The translations under genes and the position numbers were made by a program. DNA of 53,905 bases, taken from positions 1 through 53,905 of the IMG/VR virus record IMGVR_UViG_3300048836_001050. The stretch is one strand, 5' to 3'. This DNA comes from a virus (lineage: Duplodnaviria > Caudoviricetes). The notes under the pieces are model-generated. The model ran no database searches, was not told the origin of the DNA, and worked only from the letters and a program-made list of their open reading frames with translations. This document shows positions 688-1,690 of the stretch, in pieces (positions within the stretch are counted from its first letter, which is position 1; every line of letters starts with the position of its first letter).

Positions 688-717
688 TTGACACCGGCTA
701 TCACTGCGATATACAAT
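688..717 (+). promoter_or_regulatory. sigma70-type promoter, probably giving a leaderless mRNA, with a candidate operator in the spacer
   Basis: TTGACA (688-693), 18 nt, TACAAT (712-717); ATG at 725 with no SD. Quasi-palindrome TATCACTGCGATA at 699-711. Confidence 0.7.
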
Positions 718-724
718 ATCCACC

Positions 725-1690
725 ATGAAACAAGGCTCGTTTTTTCGTCTGCCCGAAACCACGCGCGACAAGCTGCGCCGGTTGGCCGAGCAGGAACGTC
801 GCACCCAGACTGCACAGGTCGAATATCTCATTGAAAAGGAAGCAGAACGCATTCTGCCCAAGGAGACCCCAGTAAATCGTCAATCGAAAATCGTCAATCG
901 TCAATCCGGTTTCACCCTCATCGAACTTTTGGTCGTCATCGCCATCATAGCGATTCTCGCCGCGATCCTGTTCCCGGTTTTTGCCAGAGCGCGAGAAAAC
1001 GCGCGCCGCGCCAGTTGCCAATCGAACCTGAAGCAGATCGGTTTGGGCATCATGCAATATACGCAGGATTATGATGAGCACACTCCTTTGCGCGATGGTG
1101 CGGCTCCTGGCGACGTGTCGGCTTCCAATCCCTACGGTTGGGCGGATGCGATTCAGCCGTATCTTAAAAGCACGCAGATTTATAAATGCCCCAGCGCAAC
1201 CGGCACCTTTTCCAATGATCCGACACAGGAAGGCTACACGACGTATTTTTACAATACCGGCGTGAATAACATCAGCATGGCGGCGATTGAATATCCTACC
1301 CAAACGCTTTTGAATGGCGACGGCAAGGTTGAAAAATCGCGTCACGCCTCCAATGGCTGCATTACCGGTACCACGAGTACTCCCATCACTGACGCCGACG
1401 CCGGTCAAGCCGGACAGGGTACATGGGGTGTCAGCGGCACGCCCTGCACCAGTGGCGATTTTGACCCAAATAACGCTATCAATTATCTGGGCGCGGCAGG
1501 CGGCGCCGATGCTGCATTTGGCCGCCATCTCGATGGCGCGAATTATAGCTTTGTGGATGGTCATGTGAAGTGGCTTAAAGGCGATCATGTTTCCGGTTCC
1601 GGGTCTGCCATCAATGGTTCAACGAAAATTTATAACGCCAACATCAAGGCCGAAGACGCGGGCGGTAAAGCGACTTTCAGCAGAAATTAG
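725..1690 (+). CDS. RHH/Arc-like N-terminal domain fused to a DUF1559-family prepilin (N-terminal cleavage/methylation motif, H-X9-DG C-terminal motif)
   Basis: [46 protein letters not shown] and [17 protein letters not shown]. Residues 1-45 ([33 protein letters not shown]) show the beta-alpha-alpha RHH pattern. Confidence 0.85.
875..906 (+). repeat. heptamer tandem repeat AATCG(TC/AA) x4.5
   Basis: AATCGTC AATCGAA AATCGTC AATCGTC AATC, encoding [12 protein letters not shown] between the RHH-like part and the pilin cleavage site. Confidence 0.85.

Follow-up and report, generated by a model that had tools for sequence, protein, structure and literature searches.

A phage prepilin gene with a predicted ribbon-helix-helix DNA-binding domain as its leader

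The DNA analysed here is IMG/VR virus record IMGVR_UViG_3300048836_001050, a linear sequence of 53.9 kb (53,905 nucleotides, the whole of which we call the window) from a tailed phage, estimated to be 57% complete. At its left end, a single open reading frame (ORF) on the plus strand (725..1690; 321 amino acids plus stop) encodes a fusion of a predicted ribbon-helix-helix (RHH) domain, a linker and a type IV prepilin. Prepilin leaders are held to be short, disposable signals, whereas here the leader bears a conserved, selected domain that is predicted to bind DNA. If the protein is cleaved as expected, prepilin peptidase would gain a new job, the freeing of a transcription regulator, and if this is true it would be a simple post-translational link between the assembly of surface fibres and gene control. 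Should repression moreover track the rate of processing, the phage would possess a circuit that reads the pilus-biogenesis capacity of its host. The RHH-leader prepilin design is rare, and is best seen as a variation on systems already known. It adds a phage-borne pilin, probably from the barely studied Abditibacteriota, to very recent evidence of pilins in phage-phage competition.

The prepilin and its leader

As the original prediction had it, one ORF places a 62-residue leader before the sequence G/FTLIELL (the slash marks the expected cut, between Gly62 and Phe63). The prepilin motif is canonical, with G62/F63-T-L-I-E67, Glu at +5 and a hydrophobic helix after it. Residues 58-83 (896..973, plus strand), which contain the cleavage/methylation motif and the first part of the hydrophobic N-terminal helix, match both Pfam N_methyl (PF07963; E 4.6e-10, 39.1 bits, cut-off 21.2) and TIGR02532 (34.3 bits, cut-off 16.3). 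They are followed on the same strand by DUF1559, also named SBP_bac_10 (PF07596; residues 88-231; 986..1417; 57.6 bits, cut-off 23.3), and by an H-X9-DG motif region (TIGR04294; residues 265-285; 1517..1579; 26.6 bits, cut-off 19). Judged from its sequence, the product carries a complete DUF1559/H-X9-DG type IV prepilin. An AlphaFold2 model of the full-length protein, based on 50 aligned sequences, has a long N-terminal helix (residues 65-115) and a globular head, with a mean predicted local distance difference test score (pLDDT) of 79, and when this model was compared to the PDB using Foldseek, the best matches were type IV pilins, all of them weak (E 0.17 or worse). The ORF holds the only pilin motif of the window. 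Its pilin helix matches a phage 'pilin' family of the PHROGs, which is listed under morons (E 3.4e-8); PADLOC gave no match for the pilin, and neither did a tblastn search with the window protein against 50,697 GenBank phage records. At 62 residues, the leader lies outside the range of about 5-30 residues of short leaders. One report describes pilin leaders of 6-7 residues for type IVa and of 15-30 residues for type IVb pilins (PMC6201914).

The first 44 residues of the leader (725..856, plus strand) are very probably an Arc/Mnt-type RHH domain. The likeness of residues 1-45 to such a domain, which had been noticed in the original prediction, is weak for the single sequence and becomes clear with a family profile. 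Searching the PDB with the leader as a single sequence gave no matches, and a profile of five sequences (A4) retrieved AmrZ only, with an E-value of 0.26. HMMER, run with the leader against 1.84 billion representative proteins, gave three matches: a fragment in which the domain is fused (P0002), a standalone protein of 50 amino acids (P0004), and a protein of 2071 amino acids without an aligned stretch (P0003). A scan of viral contigs with the leader alignment was more productive and yielded 13 further loci besides the contig of L002, a 62.5-kb IMG/VR provirus record that contains a related fusion gene (see below). Twelve of these 13 loci are standalone small ORFs (55-65 amino acids in 10 cases, and 82-83 amino acids, counted from the farthest start, in 2), in the remaining one the match lies within a protein of 236 amino acids, and a pilin motif was found in none of the 13. 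The family alignment A6 comprises 11 sequences, namely those of the window, L002, P0004, P0005 and 7 of the 12 standalone viral ORFs. With the profile of A6, a search of the PDB retrieved Mnt (1mnt, E 5.7e-5), pArc (3.9e-4), Arc (0.019), AmrZ (0.034) and an 'Arc family DNA-binding protein' (0.062), and also unrelated RuBisCO small-subunit and LCIB chains at E-values of 0.038-0.12. Comparison by hhalign with the Mnt and Arc sequences of Salmonella phage P22, as taken from the P22 record, gave values of 94% (P 1.5e-7) and 89% (P 2.4e-6), respectively, over 41 columns and in one register.

Several other searches point in the same direction. The best Pfam match was an RHH family in 5 of 6 sequences of the leader family, and P0004 exceeded the cut-off of the Arc family (22.5 bits versus 20.4). 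The relatives L169 and L174 matched several PHROG 'Arc-like repressor' families with E-values down to 4e-7, and the window leader itself matched phrog_228 with an E-value of 0.0038; RepB-RCR_reg was a further, sub-threshold match of this leader. In the ESM Atlas, the feature scores for RHH families were 0.91-0.93 for L002 and 0.87-0.89 for the window, where scores below 0.9 count as leads only, and the corresponding models aligned to RHH models with template modelling scores of 0.75-0.84 (L002) and 0.71-0.78 (window). Residues R8, R26 and T29 are invariant in the five-sequence alignment A4, and they align with residues of Arc and Mnt that contact DNA or its backbone.

The ORF appears to have its own promoter, as had been proposed. 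A predicted sigma-70-type promoter at 688..717 (plus strand) consists of TTGACA (688-693), an 18-nt spacer and TACAAT (712-717), in agreement with the consensus in 11 of 12 positions; between 400 and 2000 there are two such promoter sites, where 1.2 would be expected. The ATG at 725 lies 7 nt past the -10 box, and there is no Shine-Dalgarno (SD) sequence before it. L002 has both hexamers in identical form, spaced by 18 nt as in the window and with the -10 box again 7 nt from the ATG, an A/T-rich upstream region and likewise no SD sequence, whereas the spacer is identical in 6 of 18 positions and the stretch between -10 box and ATG in 2 of 7 (counted by hand on the alignment). Because the layout TTGACA-18-TACAAT-7-ATG is kept in L002, these data support a working promoter at 688..717 and make a leaderless, or nearly leaderless, mRNA from the ATG at 725 plausible, so that the start suggested in the original prediction is probably right.

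The same prediction had also pointed out a quasi-palindrome between the two promoter boxes. This element, TATCACTGCGATA at 699..711, with arms of 4 bp, is indeed present, but evidence for an operator did not emerge: a repeat search reported no inverted repeat at 699-711, matches to the element with up to 3 mismatches numbered 11 versus 7.2 expected, a count that was reached in 14 of 100 shuffles, and the element is not conserved in L002. The RHH repressor omega binds heptads of 7 bp. Inverted relative to each other, two loosely similar heptads lie in the promoter spacer (699 on the plus strand and 705 on the minus strand), a pattern that was defined post hoc.

Relatives, age of the fusion and the internal start

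Word-based searches for further fusions gave P0001 and P0002, scans of viral sequences gave L002, and GenBank phages gave none. P0001 is a protein of 313 amino acids with an overall identity of 92% to the window protein, and it is an in-frame fusion without a stop, its linker ending in ...LPKEKDVKKKG/F. The L002 gene, 42% identical to that of the window, is again an in-frame fusion without a stop. P0002 looks degraded, in that the ATG of its RHH part does not share the frame of the called ORF, the -1 residue is Ala instead of Gly, and the product stops early, after 184 amino acids. RHH-prepilin fusions of the kind for which the original prediction proposed a search thus do occur elsewhere, joined in frame and without a stop in P0001, P0002 and L002, and homologues are not always two separate genes. 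Moreover, the identical 321-aa protein has been recorded from four contigs. Since the same protein is found on four contigs and the same in-frame join in three relatives, the junction between the RHH domain and the pilin is, as far as these sequences tell, no assembly artefact.

The window gene was compared codon by codon with that of L002. In the RHH domain (residues 1-44), 24 of 43 aligned codons encode identical residues, and the ratio of nonsynonymous to synonymous substitution rates (dN/dS) is 0.28, with a proportion of synonymous differences (pS) of 0.66. In the linker (residues 45-62), 3 of 13 aligned codons are identical in this sense and dN/dS is about 1.1. The pilin helix (residues 63-118) is the best conserved part, with 54 of 56 residues identical, and here dN/dS is not computable, as synonymous sites are saturated (dN 0.061). 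For the globular part (residues 119-321) the values are 61 of 151 and a dN/dS of about 0.2. Given the dN/dS of 0.28 between window and L002, the RHH frame is under purifying selection. It had been suggested that the fusion could be recent. This suggestion does not hold, as the same in-frame join is common to L002, whose synonymous sites are near saturation when compared to the window, which argues that the fusion predates a deep split and is old.

The linker (residues 45-62; 857..910, plus strand) is basic and unconserved, varies in length among the relatives, and ends at Gly62 (-1), so that the expected cut falls between positions 910 and 911. The mean AlphaFold2 pLDDT is 66 for residues 41-50 and 53 for residues 51-60. 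Within the linker lies what looks like an orphan internal ribosome-binding site (860..874, plus strand): AAGGAG (860-865) and, 6 nt further on, an in-frame GTA (872-874) are present as described in the original prediction. Positions 860-865 hold the only AGGAG between 700 and 1700. The 5-mers AGGAG and GGAGG occur in 1.4% of 17-nt windows, compared to 4 of 44 mechanically called gene starts, an enrichment from which it follows that the phage does use SD sequences and which makes 860-865 look like a genuine ribosome-binding site, be it still functional or a remnant. A perfect 6-bp hairpin, GCAGAA-CGCA-TTCTGC, immediately precedes this AAGGAG in the window (842-857) and is not found in L002.

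What this site may have been is suggested by L002. In its linker, AGGAGG is followed after 5 nt by an ATG that aligns over the GTA at 872-874 of the window and that would open the sequence MEIRKRTG/F, with a leader of 8 residues next to the long leader of 56 residues. P0001 has a Val at the position of the internal start, followed by KKKG/F. In the window, the nearest in-frame ATG, GTG or TTG lies 43 residues upstream of the cleavage site, inside the RHH domain. Among 177 pilin motifs (164 loci), the window is alone in having its nearest ATG, GTG or TTG more than 30 residues upstream, as all others have one within 29 residues. Because the SD sequence and ATG of L002 align with the AAGGAG and GTA of the window, the ancestral gene probably had two products, one a long precursor with the RHH domain and the other an ordinary prepilin. 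In the relatives, translation is likely to start internally as well, and the loss of the internal start in the window looks like a recent event. The idea that 860-874 is the relic of a pilin start fits the AGGAGG and ATG of L002, but the recent origin of the fusion that had been attached to it does not hold, since the fusion itself is old.

The linker of the window also contains 4.6 copies of the 7-nt tandem repeat AATCGTC (875..906, plus strand), an array that neither L002 nor the linker of P0001 has. Adding or removing a single unit would end the reading frame at residue 119 or 73. The array is in frame even though gain or loss of a unit would break it, which is mild evidence that translation across the array matters.

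Proposed processing and competing explanations

We propose that the RHH-bearing precursor is cut by the peptidase of the host into a pilin and a free Arc-like regulator, and we consider the chances of this whole chain of events to be about even. Transcription would start at or beside the ATG at 725, so that the mRNA is leaderless. The fusion protein would then enter the membrane, its N-terminus remaining cytoplasmic, and the prepilin peptidase of the host would cut it after Gly62, at the cytoplasmic face of the membrane. The mature pilin would join a pilus or pseudopilus system of the host and, by analogy with the prophage minor pilin P-FimU discussed below, may alter a phage receptor, as a consequence of which a lysogen or infected cell would perhaps be protected from other phages. 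The freed RHH peptide of about 7 kDa would dimerise and regulate transcription in the manner of Arc, with its own promoter as the most likely target. In L002, the internal SD sequence and ATG would add an ordinary prepilin, whereas in the window all pilin would have to pass through the RHH-bearing precursor, since the internal start is now GTA. A more specific version, in which every peptidase cut yields one pilin and one Arc-like repressor and repression of the phage promoter is set by the rate at which the host processes pilins, is tentative and rather doubtful. The AATCGTC array at 875-906 could work as a switch by slippage, through which regulator and pilin are uncoupled, or serve as a heptad operator array.

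A number of observations weigh against this proposal. When the window sequence was searched alone, the scores for RHH families stayed below their cut-offs, both for RHH_5 (E 0.001-0.0018, 19.2 bits versus a cut-off of 26) and for Arc (E 0.013-0.016, 15.7 bits versus 20.4). As a monomer, AlphaFold2 draws the leader as one continuous helix (residues 11-43, pLDDT 86-95), whether in the full-length protein or alone. Of the structural checks that had been suggested for the leader, profile comparison with Mnt and Arc thus favoured the RHH domain and the AlphaFold2 monomer did not. An RHH domain is an obligate dimer in which the paired strands bind DNA repeats, and these are models of the monomer. 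An operator was not found, and the palindrome and the post hoc heptad patterns amount to chance or trivial self-matches. The fusion family that we found is tiny, with three intact members and a degraded one, and our literature search turned up no report of a prepilin leader carrying a folded or regulator domain that is processed by the peptidase. In L002, the strong internal SD sequence and ATG may make the RHH fusion dispensable, and on another assembly a gene caller chose this internal start, as P0008 equals the L002 protein from Met49. Finally, the gap between the RHH domain and the internal start is only about 5 codons, so that the absence of a stop in it is weak evidence of selection.

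Part of these observations would also be accounted for if an Arc-like regulator gene and a pilin gene, lying head to tail as an accessory unit of two genes, had been joined by a neutral loss of the stop codon. In that case, the pilin would be made from the internal start, and the read-through fusion would be a tolerated by-product; in the window, where the internal start has mutated, pilin would be poorly made or on its way to being lost, with the RHH domain perhaps still acting. The arrangement AGGAGG-5 nt-ATG in L002 with its product MEIRKRTG/F fits this well, as do the SD sequence that the window retains in front of a GTA at the aligned codon, the Val of P0001 with KKKG/F after it, the roughly 5 codons between the RHH domain and the internal start, the degraded appearance of P0002, and the finding that 12 of the 13 other viral RHH relatives are standalone and that a pilin motif is missing from all 13 loci. 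We still regard this explanation as unlikely. In the window, 260 codons of pilin are still intact, identity to P0001 over the whole protein is 92%, the exact window protein occurs on four contigs, and the AATCGTC array is in frame although two thirds of its slippage products would not be. In addition, an uncleaved RHH domain attached to a membrane helix would hardly serve well as a free repressor, so that even here the RHH function would still need cleavage by the peptidase.

Two further explanations dispense with a freed regulator, and we consider both improbable. The protein could be an uncleaved membrane regulator akin to ToxR or CadC, in which the RHH domain is never released and a sensory DUF1559 domain in the periplasm governs its dimerisation and DNA binding at the membrane. 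The topology would suit such a regulator, with a DNA-binding part in the cytoplasm joined by a single membrane helix to a domain in the periplasm, and so would the name SBP_bac_10 that Pfam gives to DUF1559. On the other hand, G/FTLIELL with Glu at +5 is a fully canonical cleavage motif, 54 of the 56 residues that follow are identical in L002, and the likely hosts have two Peptidase_A24 genes each, so that cleavage is to be expected. Alternatively, the RHH domain could be no more than a bulky dimerising cap, which makes the precursor a poor substrate and a poison that jams the peptidase or the assembly platform. Host pili would thereby be shut down and superinfecting phages excluded, with no need for the domain to bind DNA. 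There are published phage proteins that prevent the assembly of type IV pili and so keep out phages dependent on them, truncated phage PilA proteins may inhibit assembly according to one report (PMC12952977), and the lack of an operator is in keeping with a role of this kind. Such a cap would hardly require the invariance of R8, R26 and T29 in A4, which align with the Arc/Mnt contact residues, and a globular pilin domain under purifying selection would be needless for a mere plug.

That the join is an artefact is hardly credible, whether through faulty assembly, through a sequencing error where the two parts meet, or because non-coding DNA is open by chance. It is true that the junction was not confirmed by public reads: the two runs found, each containing 0.05 of the words and with no RNA run among the matches, had no reads across the RHH-pilin junction, and their reads over about 852-1080 came only from the conserved pilin helices of other organisms. 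However, four separate records show the same in-frame join, and the dN/dS of 0.28 of the RHH frame comes with many synonymous changes.

Genomic neighbourhood, probable host and known systems

The minus strand of the window carries tailed-phage genes, including those for the tape measure, the major head protein, the large and small terminase subunits, an endolysin and a replication initiator. The fusion gene lies at the left end on the strand opposite to the tail genes, and the best reading is that it is an accessory gene with its own promoter. Of the traits of a moron, its own promoter and the opposite-strand position are present; as to a temperate lifestyle, the L002 record is a provirus with a tyrosine integrase, and no integrase was found in the 57%-complete window. 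No clear terminator was seen after 1690. In the window and in L002 alike, the pilin gene is flanked by a large tail-region gene on one side and by methyltransferase and glycosyltransferase-like genes on the opposite strand on the other. In the window, the latter functions are encoded in two ORFs at 1687-3520 (minus strand), with a Cys-rich N-terminus, and the methyltransferase beside the pilin gene matches PADLOC mad2 (E 6.7e-15). The counterpart in L002 (3870-5351, minus strand) is one protein of 493 amino acids with Gly_transf_sug and Methyltransf_24 domains and again a Cys-rich N-terminus. A role of these neighbours in modification of the surface or the pilin is possible.

On the other side of the pilin gene, an ORF at 2-664 (minus strand) starts 60 nt upstream of the -35 box, reads away from the pilin gene and runs off the end of the record. 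It has a hydrophobic segment at its start, an internal Met after AAGGA and no family match. The short A/T-rich gap between this ORF and the pilin gene may contain divergent promoters. In L002, the gene upstream of the pilin gene (3-2924, minus strand) encodes a tail-region protein of 974 amino acids with a very long Ser/Asp-rich low-complexity stretch (SDDSDSSD...). Elsewhere in the window, a ParB-like domain is fused to a DNA methyltransferase (27808-29334, minus strand), and a second ParB-like gene is found at the right end of the record (53457-53903, plus strand).

The phage probably infects members of the Abditibacteriota. The nearest cellular pilins are 33-48% identical to the window protein, and 66 of the 80 best genome loci, with identities in this same range of 33-48%, have names in Abditibacteri-; the others are 5 loci with names in Armatimonad-, 8 from one metagenome-assembled genome named 'bacterium', and 1 from an 'uncultured bacterium'. 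Peptidase_A24 was detected in all five Abditibacteriota genomes checked, with two genes in each, and the window itself encodes no prepilin peptidase. The terminase provided no host link, as its sole match had 33% identity and was found in one of the five Abditibacteriota genomes.

The pilin part of the fusion is of the same kind as the DUF1559/H-X9-DG prepilins of Abditibacteriota, Armatimonadota and Planctomycetota, with the same motif, helix, DUF1559 and H-X9-DG regions, all above curated cut-offs. Cellular and metagenomic DUF1559 pilins start within 29 residues of the cleavage site, which applies to 175 of the 177 motifs, the other two being those of the window and L002. In contrast to the cellular pilins, the window gene is phage-borne and its 62-residue leader contains a predicted folded domain.

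This predicted domain shows profile homology to Arc and Mnt of Salmonella phage P22 (PF03869) over the strand, helix A and helix B, in one register. The gene order of P22, sieA-mnt-arc-ant-tailspike-gtr, also resembles that of the window in that RHH comes first, beside tail-region and glycosyl- or methyltransferase genes, and in the annotation of the P22 record Arc is the first gene of its operon and represses that operon. However, Arc (53 residues) and Mnt (82 residues) are free proteins with their own stops, whereas the RHH domain of the window lacks a stop and runs into a prepilin.

Regulators that are tethered to the membrane and freed by proteolysis are known from the regulated intramembrane proteolysis of anti-sigma factors and from eukaryotic membrane-bound transcription factors. 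There, as in our proposal, a DNA-binding or regulatory domain is held at the membrane until a protease releases it. The proposed system would differ in that the protease is prepilin peptidase, for which our literature search found no report of a released regulator, that the cut is constitutive rather than signal-gated, and that the other product is a structural pilin.

Viral pilins that use the assembly machinery of the host, as proposed here, have been described, among them P-FimU, the P-PilA of Xylella prophages, and PilA1/PilA2 of SNJ2. P-FimU is encoded within the tail gene cluster of F10-like Pseudomonas prophages, replaces a minor pilin of the host and blocks tip-binding phages (PMC12952977), which sets a published precedent for the decoy pilin of the original prediction, and the archaeal provirus SNJ2 makes the pilins PilA1 and PilA2 through the machinery of its host (PMC12426801). 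For none of these pilins do the accessible parts of the reports, supplements aside, mention a regulator domain in the leader. A parallel to the two leaders of L002, of 56 and 8 residues, is found in PilA of Geobacter sulfurreducens, which has two in-frame starts that give leaders of 29 and 10 residues, both cut by PilD, with different roles for the two forms (PMC6201914). The long leader of Geobacter PilA has no recognised domain, whereas the long leader of the window has the predicted RHH domain and the window gene has lost the short form.

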